32,000 bases of DNA from Allobaculum fili (GTDB lineage: Bacteria > Bacillota_I > Bacilli_A > Erysipelotrichales > Erysipelotrichaceae): positions 1 to 32,000 of the forward strand of contig NZ_JAHDSX010000025.1 of the NCBI RefSeq assembly GCF_020969955.1, read 5' to 3'. Shown piece after piece: positions 5,129 to 21,792 of this stretch (its first letter is position 1; the number at the start of each line of letters is the position of its first letter). The notes beneath the pieces were generated by a model. It had not been told where the DNA came from and did not search any database. It worked only from the letters and a program-made list of their open reading frames with translations. The translations under genes and the position numbers were made by a program.

Positions 5129-5333
5129 TATTCAATACGACCTTGGCGACATTGTGGAAATGAAAAAAGAGCACCCCTGCCATCTTTCCAAAGAATGGAA
5201 AATCATTCGCATGGGCGCCGATATTCGAATCAAGTGCCAGGGCTGTCAGACCAGCGTTCTGATGCCGCGTTCCAAATTTGAGAAAAAGCTCAAGCGCGTC
5301 ATCCGGAAAGCGGATCAGAACAAGGAGGAATAG
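5121..5333 (+). CDS. DUF951-family small protein
   Basis: The 70-aa product reads YDLGDIVEMKKEHPC....W.I.R.GADIRIKCQGC, the DUF951 pattern. This family is characteristically found next to ychF in Bacillota. The gene overlaps the end of folD by 8 nt. Confidence 0.7.
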   Translation: MTDIQYDLGDIVEMKKEHPCHLSKEWKIIRMGADIRIKCQGCQTSVLMPRSKFEKKLKRVIRKADQNKEE

Positions 5334-5338
5334 AATCA

Positions 5339-6439
5339 ATGTCTTTAACTGCAGGAATTGTCGGACTGCCAAACGTAGGCAAGTCCACCCTGTTTAATGC
5401 CATCACCAACTCGCAGGCGGAGGCTGCCAACTATCCGTTTGCGACCATCTCGCCCAACGTCGGCGTCGTTGAAGTACCCGATCGCCGCGTAGACCGCCTG
5501 ACGGAACTGTTTCATCCGAAGAAAACGATTTATACGACCTTTGAATTTACCGATATTGCCGGTCTGGTCAAAGGCGCGTCCAAAGGCGAAGGACTGGGCA
5601 ACCAGTTTCTGGCGAACATCCGGAACACGGATGCGATCTGCCATGTCGTTCGCTGCTTTGACGATCCGAACATCACGCATGTGGAAAACTCAGTCGACCC
5701 GGTTCGTGATGCCGAAATTATCAATCTCGAACTGATCCTCGCCGATCTGTCGACGGCAGAAAACCGCATTGCCAAAGTTGAACGAAAGGCATCGAGCGGC
5801 GATAAGAGCGCCAAAGCGGAAATGAATCTGCTTTCCCGTCTTAAACCGCATCTGGAAGCCGGAAATCCGGCCCGCTCTCTGGAAATTACGGAAGACGAAG
5901 CGCCGATTCTGCACCAGTACGGTCTGCTGACTGTCAAACCGGTCATTTACGTAGCCAACATGGATGACGAAGGCATCGCCGATCCGTCGGCCAATCCGTA
6001 TTTCCAGGCACTGTCCAAAATGGCCGAAGCCGAAGGCGCGCGCATCGTTCCGATCTGCGCCCGTCTTGAAGAAGAACTTTCCAGTCTGGAACCGGAAGAA
6101 AAGGACGCGTTCCTCGAAGATCTCGGTCTTCCGCAGTCCGGTCTCGATCATCTGATTCAGACTGCGTACGCGACGCTCGATCTCTGCACGTTCCTGACTG
6201 CAGGCACCGACGAATGTCGTGCATGGACATTCAAGCGCGGCATGAAAGCGCCGGACTGCGCCGGCGTCATTCACACCGACTTCAAGCGCGGCTTTATCCG
6301 TGCCGAAGTGTACGCCTTTGATGACATCGATCGTCTCGAAAGCGAACAGGCGGTTAAGGAAGCCGGCAAGCTGCGCCTGGAAGGCAAGGACTATGTCGTT
6401 CAGGACGGCGACGTGATGCATTTCCGCTTCAACGTCTAA
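5339..6439 (+). CDS. ychF: redox-regulated ribosome-binding ATPase YchF
   Basis: The product has the G1 motif GIVGLPNVGKSTLFNA, then FTDIAGLVKGAS, and a C-terminal TGS-like end (GKDYVVQDGDVMHFRFNV). The length is 366 aa. Confidence 0.95.
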   Translation: MSLTAGIVGLPNVGKSTLFNAITNSQAEAANYPFATISPNVGVVEVPDRRVDRLTELFHPKKTIYTTFEFTDIAGLVKGASKGEGLGNQFLANIRNTDAICHVVRCFDDPNITHVENSVDPVRDAEIINLELILADLSTAENRIAKVERKASSGDKSAKAEMNLLSRLKPHLEAGNPARSLEITEDEAPILHQYGLLTVKPVIYVANMDDEGIADPSANPYFQALSKMAEAEGARIVPICARLEEELSSLEPEEKDAFLEDLGLPQSGLDHLIQTAYATLDLCTFLTAGTDECRAWTFKRGMKAPDCAGVIHTDFKRGFIRAEVYAFDDIDRLESEQAVKEAGKLRLEGKDYVVQDGDVMHFRFNV

Positions 6440-6478
6440 TCCGACAGGACGGTATTCCATTCCATCTGAAAACAATTT

Positions 6479-6510
6479 GACTCTCCGTCTCGATCGCGGA
6501 GAGTCTTTTT
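6479..6510 (+). terminator. intrinsic terminator after ychF
   Basis: A 9-bp stem pairs GACTCTCCG (6479-6487) with CGGAGAGTC (6497-6505), followed by TTTTT. Confidence 0.7.
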
Positions 6511-6687
6511 GAATTCTTACACTGTGCCCAAATCAAACCGGAATCCTTTTCTTTTGGATGGCGTTCTGTATGATGGGTATACGGTCCCAAAATGTATAGC
6601 CGCAAAAAGAATGCTTTTGCGAACTCCAATGGACCGAATTCGACGCAAATGACTTTGAAAGGCTCTGGCTTTGCGAAAGGAGAATTT

Positions 6688-7353
6688 ATGTTATCTGCCC
6701 TTCGAACATTCGATCTGCGCATGATTTCGATTTATCTGATTGCCGTTTTCCTTTCCATGACGCTTCATGAAATGGCGCATGGACTGGTCTCCTACTGGCT
6801 GGGGGATTCGCTGGCAAAATCGCGCGGACGAATTTCTTTAAACCCGTTCCACCATATCGACTGGATGGGTCTGCTCTGCCTGCTGCTCTTTGGTTTTGGA
6901 TGGGCCAAACCGGTACCGGTCGATCCATCCCGCTACAAGGATCCGAAAACCGGCATGATCTGGACCGCTTTTGCGGGTCCGATGACCAACTTCCTGCTTT
7001 CCTTTGTCTGCGTGTTCCTTTTTGAAGTGCTGGTTTATTTCACCGGCGGCTTCGTGAACACTGCCATCGGATCGTATCTGATCTCGCTTCTGTCCGCGAC
7101 CGCGGTGATGTCCATGGGATTTGGCGTCTTCAACCTGATTCCGATCCCGCCGCTGGACGGATCCCGCATTTTCTGGGCATTTTTGCCGGACCGAGAATAC
7201 TTCAAAGTCAATAATCCGCCTGCCTGGATGTCCCTGCTGTTTCTGGTTGTGATTTTCTCCGGCATTCTCGATGGACCGCTGGCCATGATGCGTTCCACCA
7301 TGATCGGCTGGATGGAAAGCGGAGCGCTCTGGCTGCTTTCTCCGTTTATTTAA
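6688..7353 (+). CDS. site-2 protease family (peptidase M50) membrane metalloprotease
   Basis: AAAGGAGA precedes ATG 6688, an internal start of ORF 6592..7353. HEMAHGL (HExxH) sits in the first TM segment. There are multiple hydrophobic segments, and NLIPIPPLDGSRI matches the family's conserved LDG motif. Confidence 0.8.
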   Translation: MLSALRTFDLRMISIYLIAVFLSMTLHEMAHGLVSYWLGDSLAKSRGRISLNPFHHIDWMGLLCLLLFGFGWAKPVPVDPSRYKDPKTGMIWTAFAGPMTNFLLSFVCVFLFEVLVYFTGGFVNTAIGSYLISLLSATAVMSMGFGVFNLIPIPPLDGSRIFWAFLPDREYFKVNNPPAWMSLLFLVVIFSGILDGPLAMMRSTMIGWMESGALWLLSPFI

Positions 7354-7472: not shown

Positions 7473-7517
7473 GAGTCTGTACGTACTGCAATGGTACCTG
7501 CAGACTCTTTTTCTTTT
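7473..7517 (+). terminator. probable intrinsic terminator marking the left edge of the accessory cassette
   Basis: GAGTCTG (7473-7479) pairs with CAGACTC (7501-7507). An inner GTAC/GTAC pairing extends the hairpin. It is followed by TTTTTCTTTTT. Confidence 0.55.
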
Positions 7518-7730
7518 TCCAAAAAGGCGGGATCCATTATTCGTTTGCACGCTTCGAAAAGCCATCGCCTATAGAAAAACGAAAGGTACAATCCGGTATT
7601 GCAAGAATGAGCAGCGCTTGCATAAATTGATTGATTTTCAGAAGAATTGGACGATGCAGGGAAAGGCTACGGTACAAAAAAGACAATGACAGTCAAAAGA
7701 AAACGTGAGTGTCAAACCAGACGCTCAATT

Positions 7731-7774
7731 TTCCGTACCTGTTGCGCTTTAATTCCGTACCTGTTGCGCTTTAA
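7731..7774. repeat. perfect 22-bp tandem duplication TTCCGTACCTGTTGCGCTTTAA x2
   Basis: The unit at 7731-7752 is repeated exactly at 7753-7774. The repeat ends 33 nt upstream of ATG 7808. Confidence 0.9.
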
Positions 7775-7807
7775 AAGAAAAAAGTAAGAAAAGAAAGAAG
7801 GAAAATT

Positions 7808-8071
7808 ATGAAATACTGTGAGCACTGTCATGCTCCCATTTCCGATACGGCGCTGTTCTGCACCAGCTGCGGAACGCCTGTTTCCAAATCCTCTCCGGCC
7901 AGTCAGCCGGCAAAGTCGAATCCGGTCCAAAACGCATCGGCGCAGAGAGTTCAGCCTGGCAAAACTGTTCAGCCGGCAAAAAATGCCGGATATCCTCAGA
8001 ATGCCCGGGCGGTATCCAGTACGCCTTATGCGCAGAACGCGCAGCCCGTCCAGAATGCGCAGAACGGATAG
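7808..8071 (+). CDS. zinc-ribbon domain protein with a Q/N/A-rich tail; N-terminal part of a gene split by an in-frame TAG
   Basis: GAAGGAAA precedes ATG 7808. The CxxC...CxxC arrangement (CEHCHAPISDTALFCTSCG) indicates a zinc ribbon. A low-complexity linker follows. The frame ends at TAG 8069-8071. Confidence 0.65.
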   Translation: MKYCEHCHAPISDTALFCTSCGTPVSKSSPASQPAKSNPVQNASAQRVQPGKTVQPAKNAGYPQNARAVSSTPYAQNAQPVQNAQNG

Positions 8072-8134
8072 TTTTCGAATGCGGTAAAGACAAACGCCCA
8101 GACGCAGTCCGTTTCTTCCGCTGCCTCTTCCGCC

Positions 8135-8800
8135 ATGCAGACCGTGCAGGCGGTCGTCGGTTCGGTTCAGTCGTTTGTGGATAATGCCTCGGCGGCTTAC
8201 CGGCCGGTCGCTCAGCGCGCAGTGGAAAATGCGGAAGCGCCAAACCGGGACAAGACGTGTCATGGCGTAATTCTTTCGGACGGGGAAATCGTAATCCGGG
8301 ACTACGTATGTGCCGATATCCGCTCCCCGCGCTGCATGGGATATCTTACCGTAACGAATAAGCGCGTCCTCTTTAACGGAGAAGGCAGCGGAAGCCGGAT
8401 CGCTCAGCAGGCCTGGATTGACGGCGTCACCGGCGTTACCGCCTATTACGGGCGCGACATTCAGATTTCGATGGTCGTTGGCGGAGCACTTCTTCTTCTC
8501 TGTTCCCCCTTTGCAGCGATGGTCAATCCGCTCGTACTGTTTCTGTTTATGGGGCTGGGGATCTTACTGATCATTGTCGGCCTGATGCAAAAATGCTTCA
8601 AGCTGAGCATTCATTCCAGCAACTACACCGGCAACAGTATTTCGTTTGGGAGCGGGCCGACCAACATGCTCGGCAATGCGGCGCTGCTTTCGCTGACCGG
8701 CGGCCCGACTGTCGACACCAACAAGATGATGGATGAGCTCGGCGCTCTGATTCAGGATCTTCAGACGCAGGGCGATCTGGCCATCAAAAAATGGAAATAG
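8135..8800 (+). CDS. PH/GRAM-like domain protein with a two-helix TM hairpin; C-terminal part of the same split frame
   Basis: This ORF is in the same frame as 7808..8071, and all 21 codons from 8072 to 8134 are sense codons. GYLTVTNKRVLF is a bacterial PH/GRAM-like signature. The two hydrophobic helices are VVGGALLLLCSPFAAMV and LVLFLFMGLGILLIIVGL. No Shine-Dalgarno sequence precedes ATG 8135. Confidence 0.6.
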   Translation: MQTVQAVVGSVQSFVDNASAAYRPVAQRAVENAEAPNRDKTCHGVILSDGEIVIRDYVCADIRSPRCMGYLTVTNKRVLFNGEGSGSRIAQQAWIDGVTGVTAYYGRDIQISMVVGGALLLLCSPFAAMVNPLVLFLFMGLGILLIIVGLMQKCFKLSIHSSNYTGNSISFGSGPTNMLGNAALLSLTGGPTVDTNKMMDELGALIQDLQTQGDLAIKKWK

Positions 8801-8823
8801 CCGATCGAAATTCTGCGATCGCA

Positions 8824-8864
8824 ACAAAGACAGGCATCGGCTTTCGCTGCCTGTCTTTGTTTTG
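8824..8864 (+). terminator. intrinsic terminator
   Basis: A 12-bp perfect stem pairs ACAAAGACAGGC (8824-8835) with GCCTGTCTTTGT (8849-8860), followed by TTT. Confidence 0.7.
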
Positions 8865-8878
8865 GAAAGGAAATCGAA

Positions 8879-9178
8879 ATGATTGATATTAATGTAAATC
8901 GTCTCGCAAAACGCATTCAGGAAGAGTGTCCGTACCTCGATGCGCAGGCGGCAATGTATTACGCCAGAGACTTTCAGCGCACCTTTGAAGACGGCTCGAA
9001 ACCCGCACTGGAGCGATGGATGAATCATGAGCCGTTTGAGACGGATGAAAAATATACCGTTCCTGTGATTCAAAAAATTCACAGAGCCGGAGGAATTGTG
9101 GAAGCATTCCGTCTTTACGATCTGTGGAAAAAAGATCCCGTCCTGGGCGAACGGCTCATCTGGCAGGGACCGCGCTAA
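8879..9178 (+). CDS. hypothetical 99-aa protein, first gene of the B-C-D unit
   Basis: AAAGGAAA precedes ATG 8879. No family was recognised. The gene ends 15 nt before the next gene on the same strand. Confidence 0.55.
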   Translation: MIDINVNRLAKRIQEECPYLDAQAAMYYARDFQRTFEDGSKPALERWMNHEPFETDEKYTVPVIQKIHRAGGIVEAFRLYDLWKKDPVLGERLIWQGPR

Positions 9179-9193
9179 AAGGAGCAGAAAGTC

Positions 9194-11380
9194 ATGAACT
9201 TACGACAGATGCGCTTTGCGCTTATGAGCGATGAAAAGCTCTATCAGTCTTTTGCTTCTTCGAACTGGAACCGGATGAGCGTCGAAAACCGGAAGGCAGC
9301 GCTGCAGGAGCTGGGCAATCGCGTCGCAGACGAATACGGGATTGAACGCCGGCCGATGTGGTTTGAACCCATGAGCGGAGGACGCTTCGGATCTTTTGAT
9401 GAGAATGAAAATGTCGTATGCCTCAACCGCTACCTTGTGGAAGAAGGCCGGCAGTATATGGCGGAAAACGGGCAGCTGTATTACTGCGATCGTACGGATG
9501 CGCCGGCCGAACTGGTGAATACGGTTTATCACGAATACTATCACGCCTATCAGCGGGATGCGATCGACGGAAAAGTGACGCATCCGGATCCCATGGAAGT
9601 CAAAGTCTGGGAAAGCAATTTTAAACGGGATGCGGGCAATCAGCTCGTGAACTACTACAGCAATCAAGACAAAGTGGATCCGCGCTATAACGTCCAGTCC
9701 GGGGAGCGAACAGCCGACCGCAAAGGAGAAGAAGGCGTTCGAAAAGTTTTTGAATCCAACGAAAGAACTCTCGGCAAAGACCAGATGTATGAAGAGTATA
9801 AAAAATCGCATGCCTGTGATTCATATTCCAGACACCTTCAGGATGCGATCAGCCAGTTACAGGATCCGAACATCGAAGAAAATCTCGATAAAGAGATGCT
9901 CATGAAATACTGCGATGATCATGGAATCGACTATAAAGCAGAGGACAGCTATAAGGATGTCTGCAATCGGATTCGGCAGGCAGAGCATCCAGAACTTGGT
10001 CCAGCTAAGCCCGCTTCCGAAAAATCTCTGCTGACCCCGGAACAGGAGCGGCTTAAGCAGTACATGGATGATCATGGATACAGTCCGGAAAACCAGACGG
10101 AGTATAAGCGGGATCCGGAATGGCAGCGGCTGCATCAGGCAGTTTATGGAGAACGCGAAGGCATAAATAACTTGCCGCCGGATCCCTCTTTCCACAAAGA
10201 AGCGGAAAAGGCCGAGCAGGAAGACCAGACGATCAACAGAGAACTGAACACGGAGGTTTTACCAAAGAAAGCGGAAGAAGCTGCCGAAAGCGAAGACCAG
10301 GATCAGCAGGAAGGCGAAAGCAAAACAGCGGAAGAGACCGAGGACGAATCTGAGGCTGAAAGCGAAGGTCAGAGCGAGCAGGAAGGCGAAAGCGAAGCGG
10401 TCGAAGAGACCGAGGACAAATCCGCAGCCGAAAGCGAAGATCAGACTGAACAGGAAGATCAGGTCGAGTCCGATGAACTGAACATGGACGACTCCCCCGA
10501 AGAAAGTGAAGACGAAACTGAGCAGGAAGATCAGAGTGAAAGGTCTGAAGAGACCGAGGACGAATCTGAGGCTGAAAGCGAAGATCAGAGCGAACAGGAA
10601 GAGGAAAGCGAAGCGGTCGAAGAGACCGAGGACAAATCCGCAGCCGAAAGCGAAGATCAGACTGAACAGGAAGATCAGGTCGAATCCGATGAACTGAACA
10701 TGGACGACTCTCCCGAAGAAAGTGAAGACCAGAGCGAACAGGAAGATCAGGTCGAGTCCGATGAACTGAACATGGACGATTCTCCCGAGGAAAGTGAAGA
10801 CGAGACTGAACAGGAGGATCAGGTCGAATCCGACGAATTGAACATGGACGACTCTCCCGAAGAAAGTGAAGACCAGAGCGAACAGGAAGATCAGGTCGAG
10901 CCCGATGAACTGAACATGGACGATTCTCCCGAGGAAAGTGAAGACGAGACGGAACAGGAGGATCAGGTCGAATCCGATGAACTGAACATGGACGACTCTC
11001 CCGAAGAAAGTGAAGACCAGAGCGAACAGGAAGATCAGGTCGAGTCCGATGAACTGAACATGGACGATTCTCCCGAGGAAAGTGAAGACGAGACGGAACA
11101 GGAGGATCAGGTCGAATCCGACGAATTGAACATGGACGACTCTTACGACGAAAACGAAGACCAGAGAGAACAGGAAGATCGGAACCATTCGGATGATGTA
11201 AACATGGATGAATCGGCAGATCAGGAAGAAGAAACATCTGAAAACGAAGAACAGGCCCAGTCCGAAGATCAGAGTCTGTCCGATGAGCCCAGCATGGAGG
11301 ACGGTTCTTTGCCATCAGACAGCGGGGAGAGTTCCTCTAAAGAGGAGGAAGAAGACGAACAGAAGGGCATATCCTACTGA
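9194..11380 (+). CDS. HExxH (zincin-like) N-domain protein with a ~390-aa polyacidic tandem-repeat tail
   Basis: AAGGAG precedes ATG 9194. HEYYH with a following AYQ lies at nt 9530-9553 (residues 113-120). An internal duplicated motif (K.Y.DDHG...YK.D) occurs near residues 240-300. From about residue 336 to the end the protein is almost only D/E/S/Q/T, built from 24-aa units (DELNMDDSPEESED[ET/QS]EQEDQVES). Confidence 0.85.
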   Translation: MNLRQMRFALMSDEKLYQSFASSNWNRMSVENRKAALQELGNRVADEYGIERRPMWFEPMSGGRFGSFDENENVVCLNRYLVEEGRQYMAENGQLYYCDRTDAPAELVNTVYHEYYHAYQRDAIDGKVTHPDPMEVKVWESNFKRDAGNQLVNYYSNQDKVDPRYNVQSGERTADRKGEEGVRKVFESNERTLGKDQMYEEYKKSHACDSYSRHLQDAISQLQDPNIEENLDKEMLMKYCDDHGIDYKAEDSYKDVCNRIRQAEHPELGPAKPASEKSLLTPEQERLKQYMDDHGYSPENQTEYKRDPEWQRLHQAVYGEREGINNLPPDPSFHKEAEKAEQEDQTINRELNTEVLPKKAEEAAESEDQDQQEGESKTAEETEDESEAESEGQSEQEGESEAVEETEDKSAAESEDQTEQEDQVESDELNMDDSPEESEDETEQEDQSERSEETEDESEAESEDQSEQEEESEAVEETEDKSAAESEDQTEQEDQVESDELNMDDSPEESEDQSEQEDQVESDELNMDDSPEESEDETEQEDQVESDELNMDDSPEESEDQSEQEDQVEPDELNMDDSPEESEDETEQEDQVESDELNMDDSPEESEDQSEQEDQVESDELNMDDSPEESEDETEQEDQVESDELNMDDSYDENEDQREQEDRNHSDDVNMDESADQEEETSENEEQAQSEDQSLSDEPSMEDGSLPSDSGESSSKEEEEDEQKGISY
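10331..11191 (+). repeat. nested in-frame tandem repeats: 216 bp x2, then 72 bp x7 (alternating A/B types, i.e. a 144-bp super-unit)
   Basis: GAAGAGACCGAGGAC... starts at 10331 and again at 10547, a period of 216 bp. GA[TC]GAA[CT]TGAACATGGACGA starts at 10472, 10688, 10760, 10832, 10904, 10976, 11048 and 11120, plus a degenerate copy at 11192. Copies 10688-10759 and 10976-11047 are identical. Copies 10904-10975 and 11048-11119 are also identical. Confidence 0.9.
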
Positions 11381-11436
11381 TTCCTCCCAGCTAGTCCAAT
11401 GCTTCAGCCTCAATGTATGGAAGAAAGGAAAAGAAA

Positions 11437-12747
11437 ATGGAATACAACGAACAGATTCTCAGCGGTGAATATCTTCATGATGATCTGACTTACGTAGAAC
11501 AGACGGCAAAATTCGGCCTTCCCGGAACGCTTCGAACCGGGAACAGTGTACTGCTCTGTCCGGGTGAGCAGATGCTGTCACGCCATCTGCTTCTGCTTGG
11601 CGGAATTGGAAGCGGCAAATCCAACTGCTTCAATCACCTGATCCGCAATGTCCGTGCCGGACTGACCGGACAGGATGTGCTGATCATTTTTGATACCAAA
11701 GGCGACTATTACGATGAGTTTTACTGTCCGGGCGATGTCGTCATCAGCAACGATGCCCGGGCTACCGGCGGCGCTGGTTTTGACTGCTGGAACGTCTTTA
11801 ACGAAGTCATGATCGATGACCGCGTCGAAGAAAACGTCTACGAAATTGCCGGTACGCTTTTTTATGACAAGATTCACAACAGCTCGCAGCCGTTTTTCCC
11901 AAATGCGGCGAAAGACCTGTTTACGGCGCTGATGCTGCACATGAACCGCTCCGAGAAAATGGCGGCGCATCACAATAACAAGGCGCTCCGTTCCATGCTG
12001 GATACGTTCTCTCCGGAAGCCATGAAGAAAATTCTTCTTTCCTATCCCGATCTGAAGTCGATGAGTACGTATATTGATGATCCGAAGTCCGGACAGACAA
12101 TGGGCGTCGTCTCGGAACTGCAGCAGGCAGTGCGGGAAATTCTGATCGGCAATTTTAAGCAGAAGGGAACGCTCTCCATGCGGGAACTGGTTCGCCAGAA
12201 AGGCGGCCGTGTCATTTTCATCGAATATGACACGGGCATCGGCAATCTGCTTACACCGATTTATAAGCTGCTGGTCGATCTGGCAATCAAGGAAGCGCTC
12301 TGCCGCAAGAGCAACGAAGGAAACGTTTATTTCATGCTCGATGAATTCCGGCTGCTTCCGCATCTCGAACACATTGACGACGGCGTCAATTTTGGACGAA
12401 GCCTGGGCGCCAAGTTCGCGATCGGAATTCAGAACGTGGATCAGATTTCGGCAGCGTATGGCGAAAACCTGGCGCGAAGCATTCTTTCCGGTTTCGCGAC
12501 AACGTTCGCTTTTCGGGTCAACGATTCCAATTCCCGCGGCTACATCAAGGATCTTTATGGAATGAATCTGCGTTCGGCAAGCTTCCTGTCCAATATCACG
12601 TCAAGAGGACTGGTCGAGCAGATTCGGGAAACGACGGTCGTTGAAGACGTGGATATCACCCGGCTACAGATTGGCGAAGCCATTATCAGTACGCTGGGCA
12701 TGCCGCCTTTCCGCTTCCGGTTTGATGAGTTTTTCTCGTCGCGCTGA
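11437..12747 (+). CDS. VirD4/TraG/TraD-like (type IV coupling protein-like) P-loop ATPase lacking an N-terminal TM anchor
   Basis: AAAGGAA at 11424-11430 precedes ATG 11437, an internal start of ORF 11413..12747. Walker A is LLLLGGIGSGKS (nt 11599-11622). The T4CP-like blocks are FDTKGDYYDEF, CWNVFNEV, QPFFPNAAKDLFTALMLHM, Walker B YFMLDEFRLLP, and GAKFAIGIQNVDQISAAYGENLARSILSGFATTFAFRVND. There is no hydrophobic N-terminal segment. Confidence 0.8.
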   Translation: MEYNEQILSGEYLHDDLTYVEQTAKFGLPGTLRTGNSVLLCPGEQMLSRHLLLLGGIGSGKSNCFNHLIRNVRAGLTGQDVLIIFDTKGDYYDEFYCPGDVVISNDARATGGAGFDCWNVFNEVMIDDRVEENVYEIAGTLFYDKIHNSSQPFFPNAAKDLFTALMLHMNRSEKMAAHHNNKALRSMLDTFSPEAMKKILLSYPDLKSMSTYIDDPKSGQTMGVVSELQQAVREILIGNFKQKGTLSMRELVRQKGGRVIFIEYDTGIGNLLTPIYKLLVDLAIKEALCRKSNEGNVYFMLDEFRLLPHLEHIDDGVNFGRSLGAKFAIGIQNVDQISAAYGENLARSILSGFATTFAFRVNDSNSRGYIKDLYGMNLRSASFLSNITSRGLVEQIRETTVVEDVDITRLQIGEAIISTLGMPPFRFRFDEFFSSR

Positions 12748-12820
12748 CTTTGGAATGCGATCCGCACCCCGTAAGGTACTCACAGAAACGGTTCGCAGAT
12801 CGCAAAAACCAGAGAATAAA

Positions 12821-12861
12821 ACCCGTCCGATCGAAATTTTGGCTCGATCGGGCGGGTTTTG
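12821..12861 (+). terminator. intrinsic terminator marking the right edge of the accessory cassette
   Basis: A 13-bp stem pairs CCCGTCCGATCGA (12822-12834) with TCGATCGGGCGGG (12844-12856), with one G-U pair. It is followed by TTTT. Confidence 0.7.
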
Positions 12862-13117
12862 TAGGAATGCGTCTGCTTGTGGAAAGGAAACGACGGTTTT
12901 CGGAAAGGATCGGATCGGGAAGAAAAGTGCGCTTTTTGACGGCAGGGAGAACGGTTGTACGGGTGACTCGGGCGTTTTCGATCCAAATCGGGTCAAATGT
13001 GAATGAAACGTGTACACCAAAGCAAGAAGTTTTCATTTCATTTTCAATTATTTTCATGAAAAAAACGTACAAAGCACACAAAAACGCAGAAATAAGGGAA
13101 GGGCACGGGAAGATATG

Positions 13118-13175: not shown

Positions 13176-14375
13176 ATGACAAAACACTTCTGGAAAGCAG
13201 CCGGAGCCACATTACTCTGCACATCCATGCTCGCTGGCTGCTCAAGCACTCCTGCAACTGGCAGCAGTACCGCAGATTCTGCTGCAGGCTCTTCCGCCAA
13301 AGCTGGCGATACCGTTAAAATCGGTCTCAACTTCGAGCTGACCGGTCAGGTCGCTGACTACGGCACAAAAGAAATTAACGGTGCGAAAATCGCTGTACAG
13401 CAGTTCAACGCCCGTGAAGACAAGCCCTTCACCGTAGAAACGGTTGAATTTGATGACAAGGGCGAACCGGCTGAATCGGTTGCTGCAATTACGAAACTGA
13501 TCGAACAGGACGGTGTTGTCGGCGTTGTCGGACCTGCGACTTCCGCAAGCTCCATCGCTACGTATGAATTTGCGACATCGAAGCAGGTTCCTGTAATTTC
13601 TCCTTCCGCAACGCAGGTAAACGCCATGCTCAAGGCAGATGGTACACCATATGAATATGCGTGGCGTGTCTGCTTTGAAGACAGCTATCAGGGCAAAGGC
13701 ATGGCGGAATATGCCTACAACAATCTTGACGCGAAAAAAGCCGTTGTCCTGAACGAAGTATCCGACTACGGTTCCGGCCTGGCCGAAGCCTTCACCGAAG
13801 AATTCGAAAGCCTCGGCGGCGAAGTTCTCGACCGTTCCGAATACCAGTCCGGCGACAAGGATTTTGCAAGCTTCATTACCAAAATCAAAGACCTCGACTT
13901 CGATGTTATTTACGTTGGCGGCTACTATAACGAAGCAGCCCAGATCGTAAAGGCAGCCAAGGCAGCCGGCATTGAAAAACCGATCATCGGTGCAGACGGA
14001 TTTGACTCCGCTGACTTCATCCAGCAGATCGGCAACGACTACGCCAACAATATTTATTACACAACCGCCTACACAGCGATTGATCCAAGCGAAGAACTGT
14101 CCAAGTTCATCGAAGACTACAAAGCAGCATACGGCGAAGAACCAAGCATGTTTGCGGCGCTTGCCTATGATGCAACCAACCTGCTCCTCTCCAGTCTCGA
14201 AACGTCCGGTGCGACGGGTGCAGAACTGAACGAAGCCATCAAGAAAGCAGACTTCTCCGGTATCACTGGATCCTTCACATTTGATGAGACAAACCACACT
14301 CCAGCAAAATCCGTTCTCGTTGTTGAACTCGTTGACGGTGTTCAGTCCAACGTCAAGGAAGTAAGCGTAGAATAA
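13176..14375 (+). CDS. livJ: branched-chain amino-acid ABC transporter substrate-binding lipoprotein (LivJ/LivK type)
   Basis: The signal peptide has a lipobox (LCTSMLAGCSS). The product shows type-I periplasmic-binding-fold features (KIGLNFELTGQVADYG, VVGVVGPATSASS). It sits upstream of livHMGF-type genes. Confidence 0.88.
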   Translation: MTKHFWKAAGATLLCTSMLAGCSSTPATGSSTADSAAGSSAKAGDTVKIGLNFELTGQVADYGTKEINGAKIAVQQFNAREDKPFTVETVEFDDKGEPAESVAAITKLIEQDGVVGVVGPATSASSIATYEFATSKQVPVISPSATQVNAMLKADGTPYEYAWRVCFEDSYQGKGMAEYAYNNLDAKKAVVLNEVSDYGSGLAEAFTEEFESLGGEVLDRSEYQSGDKDFASFITKIKDLDFDVIYVGGYYNEAAQIVKAAKAAGIEKPIIGADGFDSADFIQQIGNDYANNIYYTTAYTAIDPSEELSKFIEDYKAAYGEEPSMFAALAYDATNLLLSSLETSGATGAELNEAIKKADFSGITGSFTFDETNHTPAKSVLVVELVDGVQSNVKEVSVE

Positions 14376-20183: not shown

Positions 20184-20672
20184 TTACGATCTGCGCCGCT
20201 TTTTGCGGATGCGTCTGGAGAGATCCTGATCCGCACTGCTGGAGCCGGCGCACTGCGCCTGTTCAAGCATCTTAAAGAAGGACTCGATATCGCTGGCGAT
20301 TTCCTTCTTCTTGGACGGCCTCTCCAGCGGCAGCAGAACGATCGATCCCGTACTGGTGTCGAGGAAAAAGTCATCGTCCGTATCGCTTAAAGCGAGCGGA
20401 AAATACGTATCGGGAATGAGATTGCCCATCGAGTACAAGTCGAGAATATGATCGGCTGACATATTTCCGGTAAATAAAGGAATGAAATGATCGACGACAT
20501 ACGTATGGCCGTCTACCTCCAGAGGGGTATGGAACATACTCATACCGTTGCACGTGCGGTAGAAGTCCTTGAGGGCGCCGGGAAGACACAGATTATAGCG
20601 GTCTTCAAATTCCAGGAGCATTTCTTCCGAGAAAGGTAAAGGGTCCTGGCCGGGGGTGAGGAATGAATACAT
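20184..20672 (-). CDS. SMI1/KNR4 (SUKH-1) family immunity-like protein
   Basis: AAAGGAGG precedes the ATG whose complement is at 20670-20672, an internal start of ORF 20184..20747. LEFEDRYNLCLPGALKDFYRTCNG matches the family pattern (LP..yk.F....NG). The C-terminal tail is basic. Confidence 0.72.
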   Translation of the reverse strand: MYSFLTPGQDPLPFSEEMLLEFEDRYNLCLPGALKDFYRTCNGMSMFHTPLEVDGHTYVVDHFIPLFTGNMSADHILDLYSMGNLIPDTYFPLALSDTDDDFFLDTSTGSIVLLPLERPSKKKEIASDIESFFKMLEQAQCAGSSSADQDLSRRIRKKRRRS

Positions 20673-20890
20673 GAGGTATACACCTCCTTTTCTCAAGTAT
20701 AGGCGCCATAGGGACCTCTCATTTCGTCGCCGGAGCGAAATTATCAAACCTTAATGGGAAAAAAGAATATAAACAAAGGCCGCCTAAAGATCCAAAACCA
20801 TTATGGAGAAAATGAATAGAATGTAACAATTTACATTTCCAGCTCAAAACCGCGCGCAAACGGTCAGAGCGGATCGCGACGGCAGACCAA

Positions 20891-20943: not shown

Positions 20944-21663
20944 TTACTGGACGGGCCAGGAAGCGAGATCCGAAGGGAAGTCGATTTGAACGGTTCCGCC
21001 GACCTGATCGATTTCGATATCGGCCTGGAAGGTAAGCGGCGTGCTGGCCACGTCGATGTCATACGTTCCCTTGAGGTCGATCGACAGTTCCCTGATCGTC
21101 TTGTTTTCGATCTCGACTTCAAGGACGGTTTTGTCTACGTCGACCGCGCCATAGGAATCCAGAAATTTGGCGACTTCCGAAGGTTTGAGCACAAAGGTGT
21201 ATTCATTGCCCTCCACTTTTACGGATTCGAAGAGGTTTTCCCGCTCGCTGCGGGAAAGTTCCAGAAACGGGTTGGGCATATGGAAACCGTCTTCTTCGTT
21301 AATACCGAGATTTGCGGCGAGAGAAGACGATTTGGTTCCGGCATAATTAAGATACGTGTGACCGTCACGAATATAAAAATCGGCGTCCACGCTCTGTCCG
21401 GCCACGCTGCCTTTTCCGAGAAAAGCCAGTTCAGCCGGCTGGCTTTGATACGCAGCGTTGAAATCCAGATCGACGCCCAGAAGATTCATATCCCCGTGGG
21501 CTTTGAGCGAATCGGCTTCACAAAGGCGGTTCCAGGATTCGAAAAACAGGTTTACAGCCTCCTTTTTCTGGTCAGCATTGCTGTTGGAACAGCCGGCAGC
21601 CAGAGAAGAAAAGGCGAACAGCGTACAGAGCGCTGTAGTGCGAAATGCGTGTTTTGAGAGCAT
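20944..21663 (-). CDS. lipoprotein of unknown function
   Basis: AAAGGAGAA precedes the ATG at 21663, an internal start of ORF 20944..21708. The signal peptide has a lipobox (LFAFSSLAAGCSNS). The remainder looks beta-rich and no family was recognised with confidence. Confidence 0.7.
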   Translation of the reverse strand: MLSKHAFRTTALCTLFAFSSLAAGCSNSNADQKKEAVNLFFESWNRLCEADSLKAHGDMNLLGVDLDFNAAYQSQPAELAFLGKGSVAGQSVDADFYIRDGHTYLNYAGTKSSSLAANLGINEEDGFHMPNPFLELSRSERENLFESVKVEGNEYTFVLKPSEVAKFLDSYGAVDVDKTVLEVEIENKTIRELSIDLKGTYDIDVASTPLTFQADIEIDQVGGTVQIDFPSDLASWPVQ

Positions 21664-21792
21664 GCGTTCTCCTTTCAAAAGAAATTGGACCGGTCTGCAT
21701 CGACTCAAATCAGAAGGAAGAGCAGAGCGGCAGGGTTATTAAGCGGGAAACAGGCGGCAAAGAATGTCCGCCTGACAAAATGCAGAAAAGCA

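Follow-up and report, generated by a model that had tools for sequence, protein, structure and literature searches.

The Allobaculum fili genome carries, within a 32,000-nt stretch (RefSeq assembly GCF_020969955.1, contig NZ_JAHDSX010000025.1, positions 1 to 32,000 of the forward strand; hereafter the window), a cassette of four genes, A, B, C and D, inserted among housekeeping genes. We conclude that this cassette is probably, with a rough probability of 0.6, a polymorphic toxin-immunity module with its own minimal export machinery. Comparison of sequences suggests that genes C and B form a toxin-immunity pair of reversed layout, with the toxin domain first and the trafficking region last, which is genetically locked to an ATPase (D) and a membrane protein (A). 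The synteny of the four parts, the presence of swappable toxin domains, covarying partner genes that include known immunity families, a conserved C-terminal tail and the absence of Sec signals directly support this reading.

Recurrence of the cassette across phyla

A pattern scan for D, performed on one genome per species in 185,579 species, identified relatives in 295 of them by the patterns used, and the best 80 were 51-68% identical. Hosts included Clostridia, Erysipelotrichia, many Anaerolineae and other Chloroflexota, as well as Verrucomicrobiota, Kiritimatiellia, Victivallales, Cloacimonadota, Bdellovibrionota and Leptospirales. Open reading frames (ORFs) were called in all loci, followed by iterated searches with hidden Markov models seeded from three cassettes. 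Linkage of A and D was counted only in loci with at least 4 kb of upstream and 3 kb of downstream sequence (n = 52), and a strong A-family gene (E < 1e-40) was present at most 5.5 kb from D in 52/52. These loci were from Bacillota, Chloroflexota, Verrucomicrobiota, Kiritimatiellia, Victivallales, Cloacimonadota, Bdellovibrionota and Leptospirales, and large replicons of Paenibacillus and Curtobacterium still carried the A-D pair at a D identity of 38%. The order of A, a small gene, a gene for an acidic protein and D recurred across phyla in differing chromosomal contexts. An original prediction, made from the letters of the window alone, had proposed an accessory module and had asked whether B, C and D stay together in other genomes. 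They do, and the module is both syntenic and horizontally scattered.

We clustered the ORFs (~940) in the 8-kb flanks of 80 loci all against all, and found no recurrent type IV secretion system (T4SS), relaxase, integrase or type VII secretion system (T7SS) family; the flanks were made up of lineage-specific, housekeeping genes. No relaxase, VirB4, integrase or transposase family was found among the ORFs of the window either, as had been noted earlier. Since, in addition, D is ~25% identical to plasmid TraD and its relatives are absent from 50,697 phage records, we reject the possibility, raised in the original prediction, that the cassette is the truncated edge of a conjugative element. A further concern had been that the genes could be core at this position throughout the family. 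The locus is fixed in this Allobaculum species, with the cassette at the same position in all Allobaculum contigs seen and signs of strain-level inactivation, and it is found elsewhere in the genome in other genera.

Additional genes were observed in the flanks of other loci that are absent from the window. A zinc-ribbon membrane protein with an extracellular C-type lectin domain was encoded at 21 loci, mostly downstream of D (for example, L016 11200-12069 and L003 11302-12153), and a TcaA-like zinc-ribbon membrane protein of ~450-520 aa was encoded directly 5' of A at 16 loci (for example, L046 4935-6299). Both may be accessory components. The single IMG/VR contig with a D relative (L089, UViG_3300029356_000130; 45% identity) showed a weak A-like match 3' of D. 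On the Curtobacterium plasmid pS16 (L091), a 576-aa acidic ORF (5272-7002, + strand; 24% Asp+Glu) ends directly 5' of the D-like gene. The deposited annotation places a hypothetical coding sequence on the opposite strand of this region, and the record may therefore be misannotated.

Tail-bearing proteins with interchangeable toxin domains

Where enough upstream sequence was available (~70 loci), a gene encoding an acidic protein ends ~3-30 nt before D in most cases. These proteins range in length from 83 to more than 900 aa, and the consensus of the last eight residues of proteins encoded before D is D-Y-x-Y-G-Y-G/S-Y (n = 68), with Gly at position -4 in 43/68, Tyr at -3 in 41/68, Gly or Ser at -2 in 49/68 and Tyr at -1 in 36/68. 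A regular expression for the tail matched 52 of 6175 ORFs, and almost every match lay immediately 5' of D. As this expression was devised after inspection of the data, the position counts and a comparison with background ORFs are the fairer measure. By a looser test, which required at least two aromatic residues in the last six and a preceding acidic stretch, 39/68 tail proteins were positive, compared with 24/2313 background ORFs. Since a hydrophobic segment was absent in 67/69 proteins encoded before D, the tail proteins appear to lack any Sec or transmembrane (TM) signal.

We then looked at the N-terminal parts of these proteins. The first 280 residues fell into at least 25 unrelated sequence clusters across 70 loci, and most of these domain families had no Pfam match. 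Named toxin domains were found at residues ~50-300, and included Tox-HNH-HHH (1.6e-25 and 2.8e-18), Endonuclea_NS_2 (1.8e-14 and 4.9e-13), WHH/Colicin-DNase, GNAT and a weak ADP-ribosyl-cyclase (NADase-like) match. The small gene preceding the toxin gene covaried with the toxin cluster. In this position one locus had a SUKH-1 gene (9e-11) and three had an IFS gene (6e-7), both of which are known immunity families of secreted toxins (PMC3113570, PMC3482391). A PDB sequence search for the IFS-like partners, and for a likeness of the toxin at locus L023 to SPN, gave no matches. The loci show two of the characteristics of polymorphic toxin-immunity systems, namely a conserved trafficking region joined to many toxin domains, and an adjacent, covarying immunity gene.

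Could the same genes act inside the cell that makes them? In a conflict system of this kind, whether of the abortive-infection, anti-plasmid or toxin-antitoxin type, the outcome would be death or arrest of the cell in place of export; D would sense or translocate invading DNA and thereby free C from B or from its DNA-mimicking acidic tail, with A as a membrane effector or anchor. Defence systems often pair a constant NTPase with swapped effectors, HNH nucleases and NADases among them, D is a member of a DNA-translocase family, a polyacidic tail could mimic DNA in the D channel, and the distribution of D relatives is patchy and looks horizontal. However, a dedicated covarying neutraliser is usually not needed by defence effectors, and a conserved signal at the extreme C terminus of unrelated proteins is typical of secretion substrates. 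When catalogued defence systems were searched with PADLOC, only D was matched, and only partially (mad8, 4.5e-11; HerA models, 1e-7 or weaker); A, B and C gave no match, and no methyltransferase or other mad genes of the MADS system were found in the window. A catalogued defence system was rejected on these grounds. The known association of SUKH-1 and IFS with secreted toxins, and the occurrence of D in none of the phage records and in one IMG/VR contig only, also argue against intracellular action, which we consider unlikely. The original prediction had put phage- or plasmid-conflict logic first, and this was not supported, given the PADLOC result and the finding that the variable part consists of secreted-toxin domains. 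Its alternative, an export pair of substrate and coupling ATPase, is the option favoured by the evidence. Because classic secreted-toxin domains are paired with SUKH and IFS partners, we favour interbacterial antagonism by an exported toxin.

Variants of the gene order were also seen. Gene A is located 3' of D in some Clostridia, is present as two tandem paralogues in Anaerolineae, and is fused into a protein of 826-935 aa in Planctomycetes-Verrucomicrobia-Chlamydiae (PVC) bacteria. At three loci from diderm Verrucomicrobiota, Kiritimatiellia and Victivallales (L040, L068 and L080), the A module forms the end of this large protein, encoded 3' of D, and D is preceded by a tail-bearing protein of just 83-121 aa that ends in GMGQ, GISQ or GMGM. 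The Anaerolineaceae loci with two tandem A paralogues (L069, L071, L072, L076, L078, L083 and L086) encode two consecutive tail-bearing acidic proteins before D (~120-137 aa and ~220 aa) with no recognisable toxin domain. Of these, the short ones may be adaptors or another type of cargo.

A candidate zincin toxin and its partner

Gene C (9194-11380, + strand) encodes the tail-bearing protein of the window, of 728 aa. Its N-terminal domain (9194-9958) contains the sequence HEYYH (9530-9544, aa 113-117) and a downstream Glu171 (9704-9706), which would be the third ligand or a catalytic residue. Residues H113, E114, H117 and E171 are invariant across 22 homologues at 17-28% identity, and W19 and G60 are also invariant in the 255-residue domain family, which has a Q-P-x-E-x-D-A motif as well. 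The alignment of 22 homologues was built from the fetched loci and not from a word-indexed homologue search, which recovered only 8 proteins from the single sequence and 11 from a profile because of the fast evolution of the domain. When the homologues were compared with Pfam, 10/22 matched DUF6782 ('putative metallopeptidase') and 6/22 matched SprT-like, all below the Pfam gathering threshold with a best E of ~1e-4, and C of the window itself matched neither family. The best match of the domain profile in the PDB was the SprT domain of Spartan (E 0.05). An AlphaFold model of the domain (predicted local distance difference test score, pLDDT, of 84) was matched by Foldseek to IrrE/PprI, minigluzincins, Spartan and anthrax LF, with a probability of up to 0.99 and E ~0.02, and zincins were the only consistent matches, so that HExxH, the Glu and the fold of a zincin are all present. 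Taken together, the invariant HExxH and Glu, the sequence matches and the fold matches indicate that the N-terminal domain, as judged from sequence and model, is a zincin metallopeptidase of a new family. A match to Pfam Ish1 (E 0.006) was discarded, being below threshold and absent from the homologues. Hypothetical proteins of 'uncultured Allobaculum sp.' share 98-100% identity with the N-terminal part of C.

In certain other proteins (P0131 and P0137, and also P0129, P0134 and P0135), the zincin domain is C-terminal, follows a long helical region and is not accompanied by an acidic tail. From their sequences, these look like the same zincin toxin module attached to another delivery system, and the domain therefore appears to behave like a mobile toxin module.

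The zincin domain is followed by a polyacidic region predicted to be disordered (10229-11365). Residues 346-728 contain 48% Asp+Glu and 3% Lys+Arg and have no Pfam or NCBIfam domain. Tandem Repeats Finder (TRF) detected ~10-12 units of 72 nt (24 aa) at 10283-11180, and the number of copies differs among strains, giving C proteins of 512-728 aa. The repeat array breaks metagenome assemblies, and contigs often start or end inside it (L005-L008, L093-L100); certain apparent frameshifts in C (L096, L097) may therefore be assembly errors. ORFs on the minus strand over the repeats (for example, 10233-11315) were not accepted as genes, as they mirror the Glu/Asp repeat and are rich in Arg, Ser and Leu. 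C ends ...EEEEDEQKGISY, and the final G-I-S-Y and stop codon (11366-11380) represent the local version of the family-wide tail, which reads G[MIK]SY in most Allobaculum strains and SMSY in one.

Gene B (8879-9178, + strand) encodes a protein of 99 aa, predicted to be cytoplasmic and soluble, with no significant match to a known family in any profile library searched; a match to PG_binding_2 (E 0.018) was below threshold and was not found in homologues. By profiles of their own families, B was detected in 21 loci and C in 27. In 20 of its loci B was directly 5' of a zincin-type C, and it was never found beside another toxin type. This position and covariation, and the occurrence of SUKH-1 and IFS in the same slot elsewhere, suggest that B is the probable cognate immunity protein or inhibitor of the C zincin domain.

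That the C domain is a protease and not a classic killer, and that B matches no immunity family, would also suit a role without antagonism, either the export or processing of acidic surface or matrix proteins, or the action of the C protease on substrates of its own cell, with B as a chaperone. The high conservation of D and the fixation of the locus in this Allobaculum species are compatible with such a role. Yet the same slot elsewhere is occupied by genuine toxin nucleases that have a SUKH or an IFS partner, so many unrelated N-terminal clusters do not fit one housekeeping role, and the taxonomic distribution is patchy. We regard this explanation as very improbable, and retain C and B as a candidate toxin and its immunity protein.

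The ATPase D and the membrane protein A

Gene D (11413-12747, + strand; likely true start at 11437) encodes a TrwB/VirD4-like ATPase of the hexameric type, with the Walker A sequence GGIGSGKS at 11599-11622 and the Walker B sequence YFMLDEF at 12328-12348. The protein matched Pfam TrwB_AAD_bind over aa 56-384 (4e-44; 151 bits against a cut-off of 20.5), and also T4SS-DNA_transf (1e-20) and TraG-D_C (2e-12). The best PDB match of the D profile was TrwB (1e9r, 1e-12), covering both the nucleotide-binding and the all-alpha domains. D therefore has both domains that define type IV coupling proteins (T4CPs), one of the FtsK-HerA type bearing Walker A and B and, inserted in it, the all-alpha domain. 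In size it equals the TrwB chain that was crystallised without its TM part (437 residues, PDB 1e9r). It lacks the TM anchor of a T4CP, as no hydrophobic segment was detected with a 19-residue window and a Kyte-Doolittle mean of at least 1.6. None of the NCBIfam T4CP equivalogs was reached (best scores: TraD_Ftype, 89.5 bits against 521; CD1115 family, 69 against 250; all others lower), and the match to T7SS_EccC_b was only at E 0.021. Of 2534 homologues scored, the best 120 were 60-100% identical, and nearly all of these were ~430-445 aa long, with few shorter entries. Judged by sequence, D is the equivalent of a conjugative coupling protein reduced to its soluble part.

Gene A has been interrupted in this strain. 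An in-frame TAG at 8069-8071 splits the frame 7808-8800 into an 87-aa zinc-ribbon ORF and a 221-aa ORF (8135-8800), the ATG of which is not preceded by an obvious Shine-Dalgarno sequence. In other Allobaculum contigs this codon is CAG, for Gln (n = 8; Arg in one), and intact A has 330-334 aa in 8 other Allobaculum contigs from metagenomes. The nonsense allele was found again in one further contig, present in 3 samples. The N-terminal fragment (7808-8071, + strand) comprises a zinc ribbon with CxxC motifs at 7817-7828 and 7859-7870 (Zn_Ribbon_1, 6.9e-9) and a Gln/Ala/Pro-rich linker up to the TAG. Upstream, in the leader or promoter region, TRF detected a perfect 22-nt tandem duplication (7731-7774, + strand; TTCCGTACCTGTTGCGCTTTAA x2) for which zero matches are expected by chance. 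It was found only in the window and in contig L092, is a single copy in six other Allobaculum contigs, and is confined to the lineage with the nonsense codon. On account of the nonsense codon and the duplication, the sequence suggests that the module may be crippled in this strain.

The C-terminal part of A (8135-8800, + strand) contains a PH/GRAM-like domain (~8291-8770) into which a hairpin of two TM helices (8465-8515 and 8528-8584) is inserted, and a conserved C-terminal helix that ends ...LGALIQDLQ..GDLAIKKWK. An AlphaFold model based on a 48-sequence alignment (pLDDT 85) shows a sheet of more than seven strands, five of which precede and three of which follow a hydrophobic hairpin of two helices (residues 111-150 of the 221-aa ORF). 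The strands are at 53-108 and 152-191, and a long helix at 193-212 caps the sheet at the C terminus, which is the topology of a PH-like/GRAM fold. In a Foldseek search of the PDB, the top 50 matches were essentially all PH, GRAM, GLUE or PTB-type domains, including Lam6, Sac2, MTMR2 and Vps36 (probability up to 1.0, E ~0.01). The modelled topology and these matches identify A as a PH-like domain carrying an inserted TM hairpin. Pfam GRAM scored 15.4 bits against a cut-off of 23.6, so that the likeness is at the level of fold and not of family membership. The family is small, since an exhaustive phmmer search of 1.84 billion proteins yielded only 441 representative clusters. TrwB is anchored by two N-terminal TM helices, the same number as A supplies.

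The pairing of D with A bears on whether the cassette is self-sufficient. Known T4CPs need a VirB-type channel, orphan effector/immunity islands at a distance from their machine are common (PMC8740702, PMC6759196), and two TM helices per A chain seem few for a channel. The cassette might then be a cargo-plus-receptor island, in which D as the coupling protein and A as an adaptor pass tail-bearing toxins to a machine encoded elsewhere, conjugative, X-T4SS-like or other. Yet the 8-kb flanks of the 80 loci contain housekeeping genes or zinc-ribbon membrane proteins and no recurrent T4SS, relaxase or T7SS. D scores below all NCBIfam T4CP cut-offs and is distant from plasmid TraD, and its invariable partner A provides exactly the membrane segment that D lacks. 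That hosts with widely differing envelopes carry the module also speaks against reliance on any single machine. We therefore think it quite unlikely that A and D serve a machine encoded elsewhere, and prefer export by the cassette's own components.

Organisation of the locus in the window

As determined by ORF listing and translation, all four genes are on one strand between the M50 peptidase gene (6592-7353), which follows ychF (5339-6439), and livJ (13176-14375), which is followed by liv permease and ATPase genes. The left edge of the cassette is the intrinsic terminator of the M50 peptidase gene (7473-7517, + strand), with a hairpin at 7473-7507 (-19.2 kcal/mol; z -5.9 against shuffled sequence) followed by UUUUUCUUUUU. 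A second terminator (8823-8861, + strand), of a 14-bp stem followed by UUUUGG, lies 3' of gene A, and the enclosing 66-nt stretch folds with -31.6 kcal/mol (z -6.3). The third (12816-12862, + strand), with a 19-bp stem followed by UUUUGU (z -6.5 for a 126-nt stretch), ends B-C-D and forms the right edge. Because of its own hairpin and U-run, gene A is a separate transcription unit. The gaps are only 15 nt between B and C and 56 nt between C and D, if D starts at 11437, and a terminator follows D; from this spacing, B-C-D is probably one operon.

This layout is largely that of the original prediction, which had described the genes, their spacing and three terminators correctly. The housekeeping flanks were borne out by the ORF analysis, the terminators at both edges and after A by hairpin and U-run folding, and the B-C-D operon with its two gaps holds with the start of D at 11437. 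The zinc ribbon, PH/GRAM-like domain and TM hairpin assigned to A agree with the Pfam, AlphaFold and Foldseek results; the 99 aa of B and the HExxH domain and polyacidic repeats of C with the coordinates, the HEYYH sequence, TRF and composition; and the TM-less VirD4-like nature of D with its TrwB_AAD_bind match and lack of a hydrophobic segment. An intact gene A at 7808-8800 was not upheld, given the TAG at 8069-8071. The stop codon in A, the conserved tail of C and the likely immunity function of B had been overlooked.

A second gene of the SUKH-1/SMI1_KNR4 immunity family (1e-11) is present ~7.5 kb downstream of the cassette, where it adjoins a gene for a 254-aa predicted lipoprotein without a family (region 20187-20747 and 20947-21708, both on the - strand). 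It may be an orphan immunity gene unconnected with the cassette.

Proposed mechanism and its implications

According to our model, C would be the toxin, consisting of the N-terminal zincin domain, a long polyanionic disordered spacer and the C-terminal acidic/Tyr-Gly tail, which would act as the recognition signal. B, made from the same operon, would be the cognate immunity protein, by which the producer and its kin are protected from the toxin. D would recognise the tail and, driven by ATP, pass the polyanionic chain, unfolded and similar to DNA, on to the membrane, where A would supply the two-helix anchor or channel element that D lacks. The cytoplasmic PH-like domain and the zinc ribbon of A could dock D, the tail or both. 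We speculate that the polyanionic spacer, which is present with every toxin type, lets a pump that evolved on single-stranded DNA grip a polypeptide. We infer export of the toxin by D and A, the assignment of tail binding to one or other of them, and the route past the membrane.

A more specific proposal, which we put forward tentatively as it is somewhat less probable than even, is that A and D act as a 'split coupling protein', a hitherto unrecognised secretion pathway that needs no more than these two proteins. A soluble hexamer of D would recognise the D-Y-x-Y-G-Y-G/S-Y signal and thread first the polyanionic, DNA-mimicking region and then the toxin domain through a membrane pore or anchor formed by A hairpins. 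The chance that the cassette is a new minimal secretion pathway is substantial. Literature searches of incomplete coverage found no published description of this gene combination, which is absence of evidence only.

Several points weigh against an exported toxin-immunity module. Export is deduced from gene content alone. A channel formed by A, each chain of which has only two TM helices, is hypothetical. No part of the module accounts for how a toxin would cross the wall or an outer membrane (some hosts are diderm) or enter a target cell. Nuclease and NADase domains, and toxins neutralised by a partner, are also known from toxin-antitoxin and abortive-infection systems that act inside the cell. 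B belongs to no recognisable immunity family and is encoded upstream, not downstream, of the toxin, its role being assigned from position and covariation. D is unusually conserved for a conflict gene, with more than 50% identity across phyla. Finally, the locus may be decaying in Allobaculum, where A carries a nonsense codon in the present strain and, in other strains, C has a frameshift (L094) or is cut short (P0127, Allobaculum sp. Allo2).

Export by D and A, if confirmed, would add a very small new toxin-delivery route to the known secretion systems, and would be a case in which a conjugation-type DNA pump has been re-used for polyanionic proteins with nothing else of the conjugation machine remaining. 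Were the split-coupling-protein pathway true, it would deliver interchangeable N-terminal toxins in at least 6 phyla, including common gut Clostridia and Erysipelotrichia. The tail, together with the A-D pair, provides a simple signature for the discovery of unannotated toxins and immunity proteins, and yields many toxin candidates from bacteria of the gut, the rumen and anaerobic digesters, which are difficult to work with. The short C-terminal tail is also a candidate portable export tag for Gram-positive hosts. Allobaculum strains with intact and nonsense alleles of A offer a natural comparison for function in the gut.

Comparison with known systems

The N-terminal domain of C shares with SprT/Spartan, IrrE/PprI and the minigluzincins a compact zincin fold, with an HExxH helix after a small sheet and a downstream Glu. 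It differs in that the matches are sub-threshold (E 0.02-0.05, TM-score 0.2-0.5), the domain forms a family of its own and DNA-dependent activity is not indicated.

D shares the fold and the motifs of the nucleotide-binding and all-alpha domains with TrwB of R388, TraD and VirD4. Unlike these coupling proteins, it has no N-terminal TM helices and is not found near a relaxase, an oriT context or a T4SS; the genetic association with VirB4, channel genes or a relaxase that characterises T4CPs was absent from the 32-kb window and did not recur in the 8-kb flanks of the 80 loci. The predicted substrate of the cassette is a polyanionic protein, whereas that of the coupling proteins is a relaxase-DNA complex.

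Type VII secretion (EssC/EccC, LXG toxins, TslA and TslM) also uses an ATPase of the FtsK-HerA superfamily as motor and receptor, and delivers polymorphic toxins with immunity genes in Gram-positive bacteria. An FtsK-like motor is paired with a PH-like-fold accessory protein in type VII neighbourhoods (PMC3482391), and type VII toxins with a reverse domain arrangement exist, TslA and TslM having an N-terminal toxin and a C-terminal targeting region (PMC10730906). D is, however, a single-domain soluble ATPase of the T4CP clade and not a three-domain, membrane-anchored EssC. The signal of the cassette is disordered and acidic in place of a helical bundle, and no WXG100 or LXG match was found in A, B or C.

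The effectors (X-Tfe) of the antibacterial type IV secretion system of Xanthomonadales (X-T4SS) carry their toxin domain at the N terminus. In this system the all-alpha domain of VirD4 binds the C-terminal XVIPCD (Xanthomonas VirD4-interacting protein conserved domain) of antibacterial effectors (PMC8740702). Like the cassette in its proposed role, the X-T4SS has an ATPase of the VirD4/TrwB family with an all-alpha domain (PMC8740702, PMC6759196), substrates with a C-terminal recognition signal and a variable N-terminal toxin, an adjacent cognate immunity gene (X-Tfe/X-Tfi), and a role in interbacterial antagonism. The cassette differs in having no VirB1-11 genes nearby, a D protein without a TM domain and, always beside D, a separate PH/TM-hairpin protein; its hosts are mostly monoderm Bacillota and Chloroflexota. 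The XVIPCD is a folded domain of ~120 residues with conserved motifs and a Gln-rich tail, in contrast to the polyacidic disordered region of the cassette ending in D-Y-x-Y-G-Y-G/S-Y, and C, with its low-complexity acidic repeats and Tyr/Gly-rich tail, has no XVIPCD.

The combination of a soluble T4CP-like ATPase, a PH/TM protein and an acidic Tyr-Gly tail did not come up in term searches of the polymorphic-toxin survey by Zhang et al. (2012). The systems described there differ from the cassette, in which the toxin domain is N-terminal and the immunity gene upstream. They are alike in joining one trafficking part to many toxin domains (HNH, NS-type nuclease, colicin DNase, NADase-like and peptidase), and in their SUKH-type immunity genes, patchy distribution and strain-level variation. 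Taken together, these comparisons suggest that the cassette is a polymorphic toxin system that uses a receptor of the T4CP family.

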